Shown here piece by piece: positions 16,583 through 20,408 of a stretch of DNA of 64,000 nucleotides. Both the position numbers and the translations under genes were made by a program. The DNA comes from Candidatus Babeliales bacterium (GTDB taxonomy: Bacteria; Babelota; Babeliae; Babelales; Chromulinivoraceae): the NCBI GenBank assembly GCA_041660205.1, contig JBAZWT010000003.1:7948-71947 (forward strand), read 5' to 3'. Each line of letters starts with the position of its first letter. The first letter of the stretch is position 1. Under the pieces are notes generated by a model. The model made no database searches and had not been told where the DNA came from. It was given only the letters and a program-made list of their open reading frames with translations.

Positions 16583-16661
16583 TTAATCTTTTATAACTCT
16601 ACGCATTTTTCCGCCATCACTTGGCATAATTAAACCTCGTGCTTCAAGCGTTTCAACAATT
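16583..16661 (-). pseudogene. Detached duplicate of the ftsK 3' end (last 25 codons plus stop)
   Basis: 72/79 nt identical to 18069-18147. It translates to IVETLEARGLIMPSDGGKMRRVIKD*, identical to the FtsK C-terminus. It has no upstream coding continuation. Confidence 0.85.
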
Positions 16662-16664
16662 ACT

Positions 16665-17051
16665 TTAAATAATTTTACTTTCAATCAGTTCAATAATTTG
16701 TTTGCTATAATTCAATAATTCTTCTGCTTCTTCATATGTCAAATGAGAACAAACATCATCTGGGTAGCAAGTTTGAACAGAAAATGGATTTAGACGATCT
16801 GCTTGAATTCGAATATTTTTAAAATCAGCATCTAATATTTCGCACTGCTCGAGCAACACATTAAGATTGTGGGATTTAGGAATCAGTTGTCCACGCAATA
16901 CTAAAAAACCCTTCAATCCTTTTTCTGCCGATTGTTGACAATGATAGGCAACAATCCCTGCATATCTATCCCTAAATGTTATGAGTGTGGCTTGTCCCAC
17001 TTCAAAATCATCTTTTGCAAACTTCAACCATTTAAGACTTTTTTCTTTCAT
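16665..17051 (-). CDS. HEPN domain protein (toxin partner of the MNT nucleotidyltransferase)
   Basis: 128 aa. WLKFAKDDFEVG...AYHCQQSAEKGLKGFL...PKSHNLNVLLEQ matches the classical HEPN pattern. It overlaps the upstream MNT gene by 20 nt. Confidence 0.8.
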   Translation of the reverse strand: MKEKSLKWLKFAKDDFEVGQATLITFRDRYAGIVAYHCQQSAEKGLKGFLVLRGQLIPKSHNLNVLLEQCEILDADFKNIRIQADRLNPFSVQTCYPDDVCSHLTYEEAEELLNYSKQIIELIESKII

Positions 17052-17400
17052 ACAACAACTTCCCTGTTTTTAAAATCGTATGACAAAAGCTTGTTGAATC
17101 TTTTTTACATTCTTCAAACTTACTGAGATCGTAGACTAATAAATCAATGGGCATCTGTATTCCGTGCAACTCACCATAACCTCGAGCTATAACTCTCCAA
17201 GGCTTATCATCATACTCATCAATCACCGTCATAACATCAAAATCACTTTCATCGTCATATTTGCCACTTGCGTATGATCCAAAAGCATAAATACTAATAG
17301 GATTGTACGTAGCAACCAGCTTATGAACTACTTGGGCAACTTTTTCAGGGGTAACTTTAAACATTTCCTGAAATTGCTCTGGTGACATATTTTTTTTCAT
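17032..17400 (-). CDS. Minimal nucleotidyltransferase (MNT, Pol-beta superfamily), antitoxin partner of HEPN
   Basis: IYAFGSYASGKYDDESDFDVMTV matches the GS-x-G...D-x-D NTase signature. 122 aa. Overlaps the HEPN gene. Confidence 0.8.
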   Translation of the reverse strand: MKKNMSPEQFQEMFKVTPEKVAQVVHKLVATYNPISIYAFGSYASGKYDDESDFDVMTVIDEYDDKPWRVIARGYGELHGIQMPIDLLVYDLSKFEECKKDSTSFCHTILKTGKLLYERKKS

Positions 17401-17429
17401 ATTTTCTATCCGATAAAGTTTTTTAATTT

Positions 17430-17789
17430 CTAATGCAACACTGACCCGATAACACGAATTCCATTATCGCTAGCAACAACAAAATTATTTGCCAGCTCAT
17501 TTTGACACTGATCAAGAACTTTAATCAAAAAACTTATAATTTTATCAAACTTCATATTTGTCATTCGCAGCAATATAATACCATAATGTCTCTGTTGATC
17601 TTTAAAAACAAGCGTGCCAAAATCAGTATCACAAGTTATTAAAATTCTATGTTCATCATAAGCTTTTTTCAACACAGCTGCATCATCAATTCCGGAAAAG
17701 TCTGTCCCTATGCAGACAACATCATGTCCTTGCTGACGTAACCATTTCGAAATCGAAGAACCAAGATTTTCATCTACAAGAAACTTCAT
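17430..17789 (-). CDS. DUF5615-type PIN-like/Mut7-C-like putative toxin
   Basis: MKFLVDENLGSSISKWLRQQGHDVV...RILITCDTDFG...YGIILLR is the typical DUF5615 pattern. I placed the start at ATG 17789, after an AAGGGTGG Shine-Dalgarno. Confidence 0.7.
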   Translation of the reverse strand: MKFLVDENLGSSISKWLRQQGHDVVCIGTDFSGIDDAAVLKKAYDEHRILITCDTDFGTLVFKDQQRHYGIILLRMTNMKFDKIISFLIKVLDQCQNELANNFVVASDNGIRVIGSVLH

Positions 17790-17802
17790 AGCCACCCTTT
17801 TT

Positions 17803-18042
17803 TTATTTAAACATAGGCATAAAAGTTACATTACCAATAGCCTGTTGCGCAAACAAGAGACATGCAAAAATATCTTCTTTGCTTAACCTTGGATATTCTT
17901 GTAAAAGTTTTTCAATCGTTTCGCCCTGTCCAAGCAACCCCAAAATAAGCTCTACGGTTAACCGAGTACCTTTAATAACCGGCTTACCAACCATAATATT
18001 TGGATCAATAATAATTCTTTGTAAGATATTATTTGTTGCCAT
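17803..18042 (-). CDS. DUF433 protein (putative antitoxin partner of DUF5615)
   Basis: IDPNIMVGKPVIKGTRLTVELILGLLGQGETIEKLLQEYPRLSKEDIFACL is the typical DUF433 pattern. I placed the start at ATG 18042, with a GAGGTG Shine-Dalgarno upstream. Confidence 0.7.
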   Translation of the reverse strand: MATNNILQRIIIDPNIMVGKPVIKGTRLTVELILGLLGQGETIEKLLQEYPRLSKEDIFACLLFAQQAIGNVTFMPMFK

Positions 18043-18068
18043 AATTTTAAACACCTCAATTTTATTTT

Positions 18069-20408
18069 TTAATCTTTTATAACTCTACGCATTTTGCCAC
18101 CATCACTTGGCATAATCAACCCACGCGCTTCAAGCGTTTCGACAATTCGTGCGGAGCGATTGTACCCAATTCTAAAGCGACGTTGAATCATCGAAATTGA
18201 AATCTCATCACAGTCGCGTAGCATATCGGCAACTTGTTGAAAAAGATCTTGATCTGTTTCAAACAACGCAGATTCAGCTTCAGTTACAAACATATCGGCA
18301 ACATCTAAAAATTCTGGAGGCTGTTGAGCTTCGATGTGTTTTACTAAATAATGCACTTCTTTATCAGAAACATACGCTCCATGAACACGGCGTATTTGAG
18401 GATCTTTTGCATCAATAAAAAGCATATCCCCTTTACCGAGCAGTCGTTCCGCTCCCATTTCATCTAAAATAGTTCGAGAGTCAACTTTTGACGTTACTTT
18501 AAACGAAATTCTATTTGGAAAGTTAACTTTTATAAGTCCAGTAATCACATCAACTGATGGTCGCTGCGTTGCAACAATCATATGAATCCCTGCAGCTCGA
18601 GACATTTGCGCAATACGAGCAATCAAATCTTCTGCATCTTTTCCTGTCGTCATCATTAAATCAGCAAGTTCATCAATGATTACAACGATAAACGGCATTT
18701 TTTCTAAATCAGAATTTTCAGTCATCAATCTTTGATAATCAAAAATATTTTTCGCGCCGAGTTCAGCCATACGCTGATACCGCTCTTCCATTGTCATAAC
18801 TACCCATTTTAAAACTGGTACAGCTTTTTTACTGTCAGTAATGATAGGGAACAATAAATGCGCAACTCGTTCGTACGCCGTAAATTCTATTTGTTTTGGA
18901 TCGACAATAATCAATTTTAATTCATCAGGTTTTTTAGCACACAGTAGTGACACCAACATACAGTTTAACGCAACCGATTTACCTGAACCAGTTGATCCCG
19001 CAATTAAAAGATGAGGCATACTTGCTAAATCAACCACGATATGATTTCCATACGTATCTTCACCCAAAATTAAAGGCAAATGACCTTTAAATTTTGTCCA
19101 CGCAGTTCCATGAAAAAGATTTGAAAGTAAAACAGAGTTTCTGACTTTATTTGCAACTTCAAAACCAACCACATCTTTGCCTGGAATTGGAGCAAGAATT
19201 CGAATGTTGAGAGCCTGGAGCGCCATAGCTAAATCATCTTCAAGGCCTAAAATTTTACTAAGTTTAATGTGACTTTCTGGTTTGTATTCAAAAAGTGTAA
19301 TGACCGGTCCTGGATGAATTCTCATCACTTTTCCACGCACGCCAAAAAGAGCCAATTTTTCTTCTAAAATTGCAGAATGCTCAGCCAGAGCATTGCGATC
19401 AATTTCATGATGGGTTGTAGTTGTTCCTTGCACTAACATTTTTTCAATGTCTGGTAATGCATACGATTTAGGGCGAACAACTTTCTGCGCAACTTCTGCT
19501 TTTACCGTAGAGCCAAAAACATTTTCAGACAAACCTTCGTTTGACAAACTGTCGCTCGATAAGCCTTCGCTCGATGAATTTTCTAAAGATGCATGCTGCT
19601 GAACTTCTTCAAGATTTTCAAGCTCAGGCTGCACACCAAACAAATCCTGCAGCAAAAGGTCTACATCTTTATCGATTAATTCTTCATCTTGTTCAAATTC
19701 CATAATTGACTGATCTGAATTTGTAATCATTGATCCTTTAAGCAACTGGTATGCCCATCGAAATGATTGAGCAATACCCAAACATATCATAGAAATAGTT
19801 GTTGCAATTGCTCTGACTAAACGAGCTGGAAAATTGTCAACTTTTGAAACATATGAGAAAAAAGATTGCAACCCTGTTAAAATCCAACGAGCAACTATCA
19901 AATGAGCAAATCGCAATACTAAAATGCTCGAAGCAAAAAGGAGCGTCCATAAAACAATACCTTTTAAGGTTGTATCAAATGATGAAAGAAATGACATCAC
20001 AATCGATCCGACCACGCCTCCAGCACCACTGAACTGATAGTATCCAATTTCATAAAATTGACACGTTGCACTCGACAGTGCAACAAAAAAAACCAAACCA
20101 ATAATGCGGTCTAGTTCCTGCGAAGCGTTTTTGTATCCACTCATAAAAAGCAAACTATACATCATTAAAAATGGAACAAAGTATGCCGGAGTTCCCAAAA
20201 GATAGACCAAAAATGCTGCAAGCGTTGCTCCAAAATAACCAAGAGTATTGCGACACGTGCCACCCGTCGCGTGGTAAAAAAATGAAACATCGTCAGGTCG
20301 AAACGACTTTAATGAAACTGAAACAATGATGGTCAATAAAATCATGATACATAGTGGACCGTACAAACGAGCATAATGTTTAAAGTAAGCAATCAATTTT
20401 TGTTTCAT
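18069..20408 (-). CDS. ftsK: DNA translocase FtsK/SpoIIIE
   Basis: N-terminal multi-TM region. Motor domain with Walker A GSTGSGKSV and Walker B IVVIIDELADLM. C-terminal winged-helix gamma domain SISMIQRRFRIGYNRSARIVETLE. Confidence 0.9.
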   Translation of the reverse strand: MKQKLIAYFKHYARLYGPLCIMILLTIIVSVSLKSFRPDDVSFFYHATGGTCRNTLGYFGATLAAFLVYLLGTPAYFVPFLMMYSLLFMSGYKNASQELDRIIGLVFFVALSSATCQFYEIGYYQFSGAGGVVGSIVMSFLSSFDTTLKGIVLWTLLFASSILVLRFAHLIVARWILTGLQSFFSYVSKVDNFPARLVRAIATTISMICLGIAQSFRWAYQLLKGSMITNSDQSIMEFEQDEELIDKDVDLLLQDLFGVQPELENLEEVQQHASLENSSSEGLSSDSLSNEGLSENVFGSTVKAEVAQKVVRPKSYALPDIEKMLVQGTTTTHHEIDRNALAEHSAILEEKLALFGVRGKVMRIHPGPVITLFEYKPESHIKLSKILGLEDDLAMALQALNIRILAPIPGKDVVGFEVANKVRNSVLLSNLFHGTAWTKFKGHLPLILGEDTYGNHIVVDLASMPHLLIAGSTGSGKSVALNCMLVSLLCAKKPDELKLIIVDPKQIEFTAYERVAHLLFPIITDSKKAVPVLKWVVMTMEERYQRMAELGAKNIFDYQRLMTENSDLEKMPFIVVIIDELADLMMTTGKDAEDLIARIAQMSRAAGIHMIVATQRPSVDVITGLIKVNFPNRISFKVTSKVDSRTILDEMGAERLLGKGDMLFIDAKDPQIRRVHGAYVSDKEVHYLVKHIEAQQPPEFLDVADMFVTEAESALFETDQDLFQQVADMLRDCDEISISMIQRRFRIGYNRSARIVETLEARGLIMPSDGGKMRRVIKD

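Follow-up and report, generated by a model that had tools for sequence, protein, structure and literature searches.

A duplicated ftsK 3' end around two putative toxin-antitoxin pairs in a Candidatus Babeliales genome, and its possible origin in one-sided recombination

What would bring a set of accessory genes to the very stop codon of an essential gene, and leave a second copy of the end of that gene on their far side? The question is raised by a locus in a stretch of 64,000 nucleotides from a Candidatus Babeliales bacterium (contig JBAZWT010000003.1; the whole of this stretch is referred to here as the window), in which ftsK and the downstream core gene murF are separated by two putative toxin-antitoxin (TA) pairs, bracketed by two copies of the last 25 codons of ftsK. 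These copies, termed tail A and tail B, derive from functional ftsK ends of two different lineages, and the arrangement is explained here, tentatively, as the scar of a recombination event that was homologous on one side only.

A repeat search of the window recovered a direct repeat of 79 nt, in which positions 16583-16661 (tail A) correspond to positions 18069-18147 (tail B) at a spacing of 1486 and an identity of 72/79, and it found no other repeat of such kind around the ftsK-murF locus. Tail B, the proximal copy, consists of the final 25 codons and the stop of the functional ftsK on the minus strand, contiguous with the rest of the gene, and encodes a portion of the winged helix of the FtsK gamma domain. 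Tail A, on the same strand, is an orphan copy without upstream ftsK sequence and is presumably untranslated. The similarity (the letters run AATTGT…GATTAA as found) is bounded by the stop codon at one end and by the 79th base at the other, and only random matches were found in the 60 nt on each side of both copies. All seven mismatches, at plus-strand offsets 28, 31, 49, 52, 55, 58 and 73, fall on the third codon position in the minus-strand ftsK frame and are synonymous, and the translation of tail A equals that of tail B (IVETLEARGLIMPSDGGKMRRVIKD, followed by the stop).

This pattern is not one that is expected by chance, given that the probability of seven of seven mismatches falling at third positions is 2.3e-4, and that of all seven being synonymous is 0.5-2.5e-5 in a simulation. 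The proportion of synonymous differences between the tails (pS) is 0.42, with a synonymous divergence (dS) of ~0.6, and no change is seen at ~58 non-synonymous sites. Seven of the 25 codons differ (28%), which is the level found between this ftsK and that of the closest relative, the contig L005 of a metagenome-assembled genome (MAG) from Lac Pavin, whose FtsK is 92% identical in amino acids and 87.5% in nucleotides, and in which 27.7% of the codons for the same amino acid differ. Because the divergence of the tails equals that between sister lineages and includes no non-synonymous change, the two tails are two functional ftsK ends, from lineages separated at about the level of sister species, which were joined recently. 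The recency follows from the same count, since the absence of changes at ~58 non-synonymous sites places the decay of the orphan copy below ~0.05 substitutions per site since its orphaning (95% bound). The divergence of the orphan tail is, in this manner, a record of both the distance of the donor (approximately that of a sister species) and the recency of the event. An initial annotation of the window had described the 79-nt duplication with its third-position mismatches, and had proposed that the tails diverged under selection on the protein and were joined later; the repeat search and the translation bear out the description, while the codon-aware substitution test it called for, with the values of pS and of unchanged non-synonymous sites given above, upholds the proposal, both by the codon test (~1e-5) and by the agreement of 0.28 with the 0.277 to L005.

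The 1407 nt between the tails are made up of exactly four minus-strand genes, which are those that had been named from the letters of the window. Directly behind the ftsK stop, where the sequence toward the first gene begins AAAATAAAATTGAGG, follow a DUF433 protein (putative antitoxin; 17803-18042, 79 aa, with its ATG at 18042 preceded by GAGG; PF04255, 82.8 bits; MFA5998661.1) and a DUF5615/Mut7-C/PIN-like nuclease (putative toxin; 17430-17789, 119 aa; PF18480, 86.5 bits, and PF01927; MFA5998660.1), and then a minimal nucleotidyltransferase, MNT (putative antitoxin; 17032-17400, 122 aa; PF18765 and PF01909; MFA5998659.1), and a HEPN protein (putative toxin; 16665-17051, 128 aa; PF05168, 72.3 bits; MFA5998658.1). 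The packing is tight: 26 nt lie between the ftsK stop and the DUF433 gene, followed by gaps of 7 nt and 29 nt and an overlap of 20 nt between MNT and HEPN, and the HEPN stop is separated from tail A by 3 nt (AGT). Behind the stop of tail A (GATTAA) the sequence continues toward murF as TGTTGAGCTC, entering the murF-upstream spacer (16473-16582, minus strand), of which the conserved block starting at CTTGACAAAA lies 22 nt past the stop. The GC content of the insert is that of the host. The NCBI records number the four insert coding sequences (CDS) consecutively, MFA5998658-661, between MurF (MFA5998657) and FtsK (MFA5998662), and the exact DUF433 (79 aa) and PIN-like products are on record there.

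The context of the locus in related genomes was examined in eight other lineages, a small sample reached through FtsK and MurF homologs, and a second tail was looked for in them by tblastn and by exact matches of at least 12 nt. The gene order bacA-ftsK-X-murF-rsmH-spoVG-maf is conserved among these relatives, X being variable. It is an open reading frame (ORF) of 88 aa without a Pfam match, termed orf88, in contigs L001/L006, L009 and L011-14, an ORF of 158 aa in L016, a 999-aa ORF followed by orf88 in L003 and L007 (contigs with an overlap of 141 nt that make up one locus of the JAPLIP genome), a YhcG-type nuclease with a GT61 glycosyltransferase and orf88 in L010, and a NUDIX gene in L002; in L017-L019 it is empty, with 128 nt between the ftsK stop and murF. 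The gap thus takes at least six states among the relatives, none of which includes TA genes or, in any of the eight lineages, an integrase, and it is a general spot of gene turnover between two conserved core genes in the clade. No clear second ftsK tail was found in L001, L002, L006, L010, L011-14, L016 or L017-19, and no tail repeats of at least 12 nt flank other cargo at the site. Relative to these genomes, where ftsK has just one tail and TA genes are absent, the TA genes of the window are an insertion. The arrangement that had been named as contrary to such a history, namely relatives that lack the TA genes and still keep both tails, was not seen among the relatives examined. Other expectations of the initial annotation fared less evenly: the empty site that it predicted (ftsK, spacer and murF in direct succession) exists in L017-L019, but only in this lineage of 69% identity, while most of the relatives hold orf88, which has been lost from the window; and other cargo does occupy the site, but without tail repeats and with no second genome having the same boundary.

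The layout of tail A and the spacer in an alignment resembles the empty junction of the L017 type, the conserved block upstream of murF (CTTGACAAAA) being common to all relatives, and tail A is for this reason favoured by context as the resident copy. The 22 nt behind tail A have no homology, significant against shuffles, to the sequence behind orf88 or ftsK in the relatives. The contrast in GC content at third codon positions (0.16 in tail A, 0.32 in tail B) is suggestive at most as a pointer to the native tail.

Two features of the relatives were considered as possible older traces of a tail. One is the 3' end of orf88 (L001:1897-2163, L011:9617-9883), a gene that has no family match and is missing in the window and in L017-19. 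It ends in KD and the stop, on …AAAAGAT(T/C)TGA, as does ftsK, an ending found in 1 of 119 long ORFs of the window; the last 12 nt match the ftsK tail at 8-9/12 (P 0.0005-0.01), but over 79 nt the match is 28-31/79 (P 0.013-0.08), and given this weak extended similarity, orf88 was not relied on as an old tail copy. The other is found in the JAPLIP genome (GCA_026389065.1), which has an insertion of 3.1 kb (L003:10255-10870 plus L007:142-2700). Its 999-aa ORF, with no Pfam match and a signal-peptide-like N-terminus, ends in …KVDGGKMKQLARSAIK and the stop, and holds an exact in-frame 16-mer, GATGGTGGCAAAATGA (DGGKM), of the genome's own ftsK tail. A match of equal length arose in 1 of 300 shuffles and one of at least 15 in 2 of 300, and the 16-mer is the best among 149 ends of non-ftsK ORFs; on the other hand, no collinear similarity extends beyond it, and the true junction of the insert lies 70 nt further on, so that its value as a second tail trace is ambiguous. 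The orf88 behind the 999-aa ORF has an 84-nt deletion in L007 and is intact in L009. Compared with the sister contig L011, the JAPLIP insert sits 8 nt past the ftsK stop, with a 3-nt ATT microhomology and no terminal repeats, a junction that is direct evidence of illegitimate insertion at the ftsK-murF locus.

The machinery of known mobile elements was looked for at several levels. A Pfam scan of the four insert genes found no recombinase, integrase, excisionase, transposase or pseudogene remnant, in agreement with what had been noted from the letters, and no recombinase is encoded among the 30 larger ORFs of the window. Between 16400 and 18300, the best 28-mers match the dif sites of E. coli or B. 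subtilis at 15-18/28, which is the background of the window, and none of them lies in the tails. The tails form no attC-like hairpin, their folds as single-stranded DNA (ssDNA) on both strands having -4.3 to -7.7 kcal/mol (z -0.6 to -2.05). Because there is neither an attC-like fold nor a dif-like site, mechanisms of the integron and Xer types are excluded: an integron cassette by the missing fold and the missing integrase, and an Xer-dependent element, such as an integrative mobile element exploiting Xer (IMEX) or a pdif module, by the missing XerC/XerD sites. The insert does not have the features of a transposon or insertion sequence either, as there is no transposase, no terminal inverted repeats were found at the insert, and the repeat has 79 nt and is 9% diverged. 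No tail-like attP was found in IMG/VR.

Given this, the explanation preferred here, tentatively and at somewhat less than an even chance, is one-sided homologous recombination in ftsK combined with an illegitimate join that displaced the resident tail. In the ancestor, ftsK would have passed by way of tail A directly into the murF-upstream spacer, an arrangement that survives in the L017 lineage, and the donor would have been a sister lineage about as distant as L005, in which the DUF433/PIN-like and MNT/HEPN genes already stood right behind the ftsK stop. On the left side, the incoming DNA would have paired homologously within the conserved ftsK, while on the right side its non-homologous end, just past the HEPN stop, would have entered an illegitimate join at a point 75 nt upstream of where the resident gene stops. 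The incoming segment would in this way have replaced the resident segment of ftsK up to codon 755 and supplied tail B together with two TA operons, and the final 25 codons of the resident gene (tail A) would have been pushed downstream to become a silent orphan. Such a process corresponds to homology-facilitated illegitimate recombination (HFIR), or C-terminal displacement, acting here at a housekeeping gene, and would require neither an element-encoded recombinase nor an attachment site. Displacement of this type has precedents in the loci of type VI secretion system (T6SS) effectors, rhs and cdi (PMC5361080), and hotspots free of mobile genetic elements (MGEs) are known to turn over by recombination in the flanking core genes (PMC5635113).

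Several observations fit HFIR. The displaced 3' end lies downstream of the newly acquired 3' end and its linked genes (tail B-TA-TA-tail A-spacer), and the two 3' ends come from different lineages. There is no recombinase in the insert, in the ORFs of the window or at the site in the relatives, and the site varies without mobile-element genes. The duplication is unique, an illegitimate junction is documented in JAPLIP, and the cargo is modular and not bound to the tail. The synonymous divergence of ftsK from L005 is 0.25 in codons 1-460 vs 0.32 in codons 461-725 (Fisher P = 0.04), and this slightly higher 3' divergence is weakly compatible with an imported 3' tract.

Other points weigh against this explanation. 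No donor-type genome, that is, ftsK followed by the two TA pairs without the orphan tail, was found among the relatives, and L005 (contig 33 of LacPavin_0920_SED3_MAG_37_17, JAPLIQ01) ends at FtsK residue 725, short of the tail and the junction. The comparison of the tails with the ftsK of relatives, which had been proposed as a means of recognizing the native copy, does not discriminate and was rejected for this purpose: both tails match every relative's ftsK tail at 60-63/79, the synonymous sites being saturated. The genome encodes MutS, in whose presence homologous pairing across ~12% divergence is inefficient, and HFIR occurs even less often. An illegitimate join only 3 nt past the HEPN stop is a coincidence under HFIR and natural for a compact cassette. 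Moreover, direct repeats that comprise the exact 3' end of a target gene, up to its stop codon, are the textbook signature of site-specific integration.

It is this signature that gives weight to the chief alternative, a close rival that is held only a little less probable than HFIR, in which a degenerate or integrase-less site-specific element, comparable to e14 in icd or to the cis-mobilizable elements (CIMEs), targeted the ftsK 3' end and brought a replacement tail. The 5' edge of the 79-nt homology would have been the site of tyrosine or serine recombination, with tail B belonging to the element and tail A to the host; an integrase and other genes would never have been present or would have been deleted later, most plausibly on the ftsK-proximal side, where selection protects both end points of the deletion, and the TA islet would now be mobile only with a recombinase in trans. 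The repeats are exactly the 3' end of the target as far as its stop codon and re-establish the frame of the gene, and those of streptococcal integrative and conjugative elements (ICEs), of 12-54 bp, behave likewise (PMC4701971), while between the e14/icd tails there are 12 single-nucleotide polymorphisms, of which 10 are synonymous (PMC4759930). The genes of the insert are packed without slack, TA genes are typically what survives when islands decay, and the CIME class is one in which attL and attR are kept and the integration genes lost (PMC5704250). The relatives show empty and differently filled sites, although an empty site is expected under every rival explanation. However, the insert holds no integrase, excisionase or pseudogene remnant and has no room for one, and no integrase is encoded in the 30 other ORFs of the window or downstream of ftsK in the eight lineages. 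The same repeat boundary occurs in no other genome of the ~8 lineages, other cargo at the site lacks tail repeats of at least 12 nt, and the JAPLIP 16-mer, the one further candidate for a relic, differs in its boundary and lies within a simple illegitimate insert. The MNT-HEPN homolog of L021 (described below) has no tail, no tail-like attP is present in IMG/VR and no relatives of the cassette in plasmids or viral contigs, and the 3 nt between the HEPN stop and the repeat leave no space for arm-type sites. At the level of sequence, HFIR and an e14/icd-type element would explain the anatomy equally well. The element accounts for the compactness and for a repeat that coincides with the gene end, but of its remaining defining features, as far as they were examined, none is present.

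Less probable are the histories without any dedicated recombinase or with an additional step. A mini-circle of 1486 nt (the tail and four TA genes), looped out elsewhere through flanking tails, could have entered the resident tail by a single RecA- or single-strand annealing protein (SSAP)-mediated crossover of the Campbell type. The anatomy is the exact product of such a crossover, with one repeat unit plus cargo at the spacing of 1486, the identical runs between the tails (27 nt, and further ones of 17 and 14 nt) are usable for pairing, and a related MNT-HEPN pair adjoins a gene for an Erf ssDNA-annealing protein, of a class that works with short homologies. This is nevertheless a distinctly improbable route. 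An earlier genome would already have had to contain the duplication, the origin of which is left unexplained; RecA acts very poorly on 79 nt at 91% identity; neither a circle nor a second host nor a related cassette was seen; and the two TA pairs are not linked elsewhere. Much the same doubt attaches to a two-step history, in which an insertion made identical tails and one side, be it the 3' end of ftsK with tail B or the murF side with tail A, was later exchanged for that of a sister lineage by ordinary allelic recombination, from which the synonymous differences would stem. The core genes flanking hotspots do recombine often (PMC5635113), and there is the weak 5'/3' contrast in the divergence of ftsK to L005; but an extra event is needed, with its end point at or inside the 79-nt repeat, and a mechanism for duplicating 79 nt is required for the first step all the same. 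Finally, an assembly artefact, in which a chimeric MAG contig blends two co-occurring strains, is hardly credible. The source is indeed a metagenome-assembled genome, a sister lineage at ~88% nucleotide identity occurs in similar samples, and a separate JGI contig, L020 (3300014208, Ga0172379_10134967), stops 11 nt within the tail. A strain switch is unlikely, however, because it requires a k-mer common to both strains, and the tails are identical over no more than 27 nt at a stretch. Any assembly path would need a real tail-like sequence behind HEPN, the NCBI and JGI records give the same four CDS between murF and ftsK, and the junction of tail, spacer and murF is repeated independently in L020, which agrees with the window at 1832/1833 nt. 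The break of L020 at 11 nt inside the tail is not explained by the 27-nt identical tail stretch at usual k-mer sizes; coverage or population heterogeneity could be its cause.

The initial annotation had taken the two tails as the signature of an integrative cassette that carries its own replacement tail. The two-lineage tails, the insertion of the TA genes and the variable site stand, but the anatomy is not proof of such a cassette, since one-sided recombination with an illegitimate join, without any element-borne site, produces the same arrangement, and the data do not establish a mobile cassette that targets ftsK. In its strongest form, in which the 1.49-kb unit is a minimal recombinase-less integrative cassette with the last 25 ftsK codons as its attachment site, the idea is quite unlikely; such a unit would owe its movement to a recombinase of the host or of a helper, or to annealing at short homologies, as the Erf gene beside the related module might suggest. 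If it were true, the ftsK 3' end would be a dedicated landing pad in Babeliales, and the JAPLIP 16-mer and the orf88 ending in KD and the stop would be older traces of the same process.

As regards the cargo, the DUF433 and DUF5615/PIN-like genes are adjacent, with the 7-nt spacer, and carry the domains of their families, which makes them a putative TA module. MNT and HEPN likewise have their family domains, and with their overlap they are kept as a unit in L021 (ENA ERZ28613422 scaffold_66295, 1-1269; GC 38%), where they occur as a pair at 80% (MNT) and 75% (HEPN) identity. The family search for HEPN gave this one relative at 75% and all others at 44% or less. The DNA homology between the window and L021 is 79% and covers exactly the MNT and HEPN ORFs, and because L021 has MNT-HEPN alone, with neither an ftsK tail nor the DUF433/PIN-like pair, the two TA pairs are, as judged from this comparison, separate modules, of which MNT-HEPN moves without the tail. 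In L021 the pair stands head-to-head with a gene for an Erf-family ssDNA-annealing protein (PF04404, phrog_2324), which suggests a phage-like or mobile neighbourhood for MNT-HEPN in another low-GC organism. Cluster mates of the insert proteins at 90% identity or more lie on short Logan and JGI contigs, among them Logan contigs of 2435 nt (with MNT and HEPN) and 1223 nt and a JGI contig of 1090 nt (with the PIN-like protein), and MNT and HEPN on a Logan contig are 96-98% identical to those of the window.

The match of MNT to the NCBIfam MntA is sub-threshold, at 37.9 bits (cut-off 60), there is no HepT/DUF86 match, and the pair falls outside the characterised HepT/MntA (type VII) equivalog. PADLOC identified no known defence system in the insert, only weak candidate-family matches for MNT. 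No relatives of the insert were found in viral contigs with the tail pattern, HEPN and PIN queries, and among plasmids the DNA of the whole cassette gave only a 61-nt match to the DUF433 core in Leptospira plasmids; a word-index search with the four concatenated proteins matched only a DUF433 fusion protein, at 58% identity. Codon 95 of HEPN (16767-16769) encodes Cys, in place of an Arg that belongs to a near-invariant R-Y-P motif and is present in 95% of 134 homologs, including the 96%-identical variant P0394 and the 75%-identical homolog in L021. Because Cys95 replaces this conserved Arg, the putative toxin may be attenuated by R95C. That the TA pairs are retained is probably due to addiction or drift. 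Relatives have another MNT-type TA pair (NTP_transf_2 and NTase_sub_bind; L003:4312-4985, L011:3581-4254), which sits ~3 kb upstream of ftsK, between an acyltransferase gene and the 551-aa gene mentioned below, and because of this pair, TA modules can be said to occupy several intergenic spots around the ftsK locus in the clade.

The ftsK gene (18069-20411, minus strand) is complete and encodes 780 aa with the four-transmembrane, alpha, motor and gamma regions (PF13491, PF17854, PF01580, PF09397), and its product is 100% identical to MFA5998662.1, from a 108.5-kb contig of a Candidatus Babeliales (Dependentiae) MAG. The murF gene (15018-16472, minus strand; 484 aa; MFA5998657.1) has the Pfam Mur ligase domains. 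Right behind its conserved Met-Leu start, codons 3-23 (16404-16466) form a Gln/Leu-rich insertion of 21 codons, DKVTHDQLLQDQLMHNQLQRM, which has no counterpart in any of the relatives, is present in L020, and holds a 22-nt internal repeat (16417-16438/16432-16453).

Elsewhere in the window, tRNA-Pro(TGG) occurs twice (49444-49519 and 55644-55719), at 98% identity over 85 nt including upstream bases, and each copy is followed by a related stretch of 46 nt (49525-49570 vs 56115-56160, 85%). The copies bracket ~6.1 kb with genes that were named from their translations as small membrane proteins, an NfeD-like and an SPFH/stomatin-like protein, among them three tandem paralogous membrane-protein genes (51038-52282; 115, 135 and 141 aa) with a 120-nt repeat at 76%, and an 80-aa ORF behind the second copy (55864-56106) reads as GIY-YIG-like. 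This segment may be another insertion bounded by a duplicated gene. No trans-acting integrase is evident in it from a reading of the translations, of which only the ORF at 49609-50436 was scanned against Pfam, without a match. Closer to ftsK, two paralogous genes (21415-23070, 551 aa, and 24542-26263, 573 aa) lie 3.1 kb apart, are 72-82% identical in blocks of nucleotides, and have signal-peptide-like N-termini. In the relatives a single copy stands beside bacA; neither the 573-aa gene nor the orthologs of the 551-aa gene in relatives have a Pfam match.

The locus offers a datable snapshot of the entry of accessory genes into the streamlined genome of an uncultured bacterium of intracellular type (Dependentiae), in which the extreme end of an essential gene received sister-lineage DNA and remained undamaged. 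Should the same boundary be found with other cargo, it would point to a new attachment site and possibly to a new class of recombinase-less cassette; otherwise, the locus would represent a textbook case of imprecise, homology-anchored acquisition at a housekeeping gene, a process usually inferred only for polymorphic toxin loci.

Among known systems, the arrangement is similar to that of e14 (and phage 21) in the icd gene of E. coli, where an essential or housekeeping gene is entered at its 3' end, the differences in the tail brought in are mostly synonymous, and the original tail is orphaned at the far end as icdC (PMC4759930). Unlike the insert described here, e14 is a 15-kb prophage with an integrase, an excisionase and a defined crossover core of 11 bp, whereas the insert has 1.4 kb, carries TA genes only, lacks a recombinase and a demonstrated core, and occurs once. 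The CIMEs, derived from ICEs or from integrative and mobilizable elements (IMEs), also have repeats of the 3' end of the target gene and no genes for integration or transfer (PMC5704250), but they are recognised by att sites common to known ICEs or IMEs at the same target, and the ftsK 3' ends of Babeliales have no known parent element, integrase or recurrent att boundary. The streptococcal ICEs use the 5' end of ftsK, not its 3' end (PMC4701971), and no report of the latter as an integration target was found in the literature. The novelty that had been suspected for the insertion site is nevertheless to be toned down: the replacement of a tail, with differences that are mostly synonymous, is classic for e14/icd (PMC4759930), and elements of the CIME kind are already known (PMC5704250).

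On the other hand, the orphan modules of rhs and cdi and the T6SS arrays of V. cholerae share with the locus an upstream homologous anchor, an old 3' end that is shifted downstream and the lack of an integrase (PMC5361080). Those loci encode polymorphic toxins, and the ends displaced there are unlike in their protein sequences and may be put to use again; here, by contrast, ftsK serves as the anchor, the two ends agree in the peptide they encode and TA modules form the cargo. As in the MGE-free hotspots of horizontal gene transfer, an interval flanked by core genes has lineage-specific content and no integrase (PMC5635113), although the turnover of such hotspots by double homologous recombination leaves no duplication, while the orphan tail marks an imprecision on one side. 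Integron cassettes, IMEX and pdif modules are similarly small, poor in promoters and devoid of a recombinase, which acts on them in trans, and often carry TA genes, but the flanks of the insert, unlike theirs, are direct repeats of coding sequence. Each of the traits of the locus, namely synonymous tail replacement, orphaned gene ends, islets without an integrase and TA cargo, is already known. On present evidence it adds no new mechanism; it extends a known kind of recombination scar to a new gene and to a phylum that has received little study.

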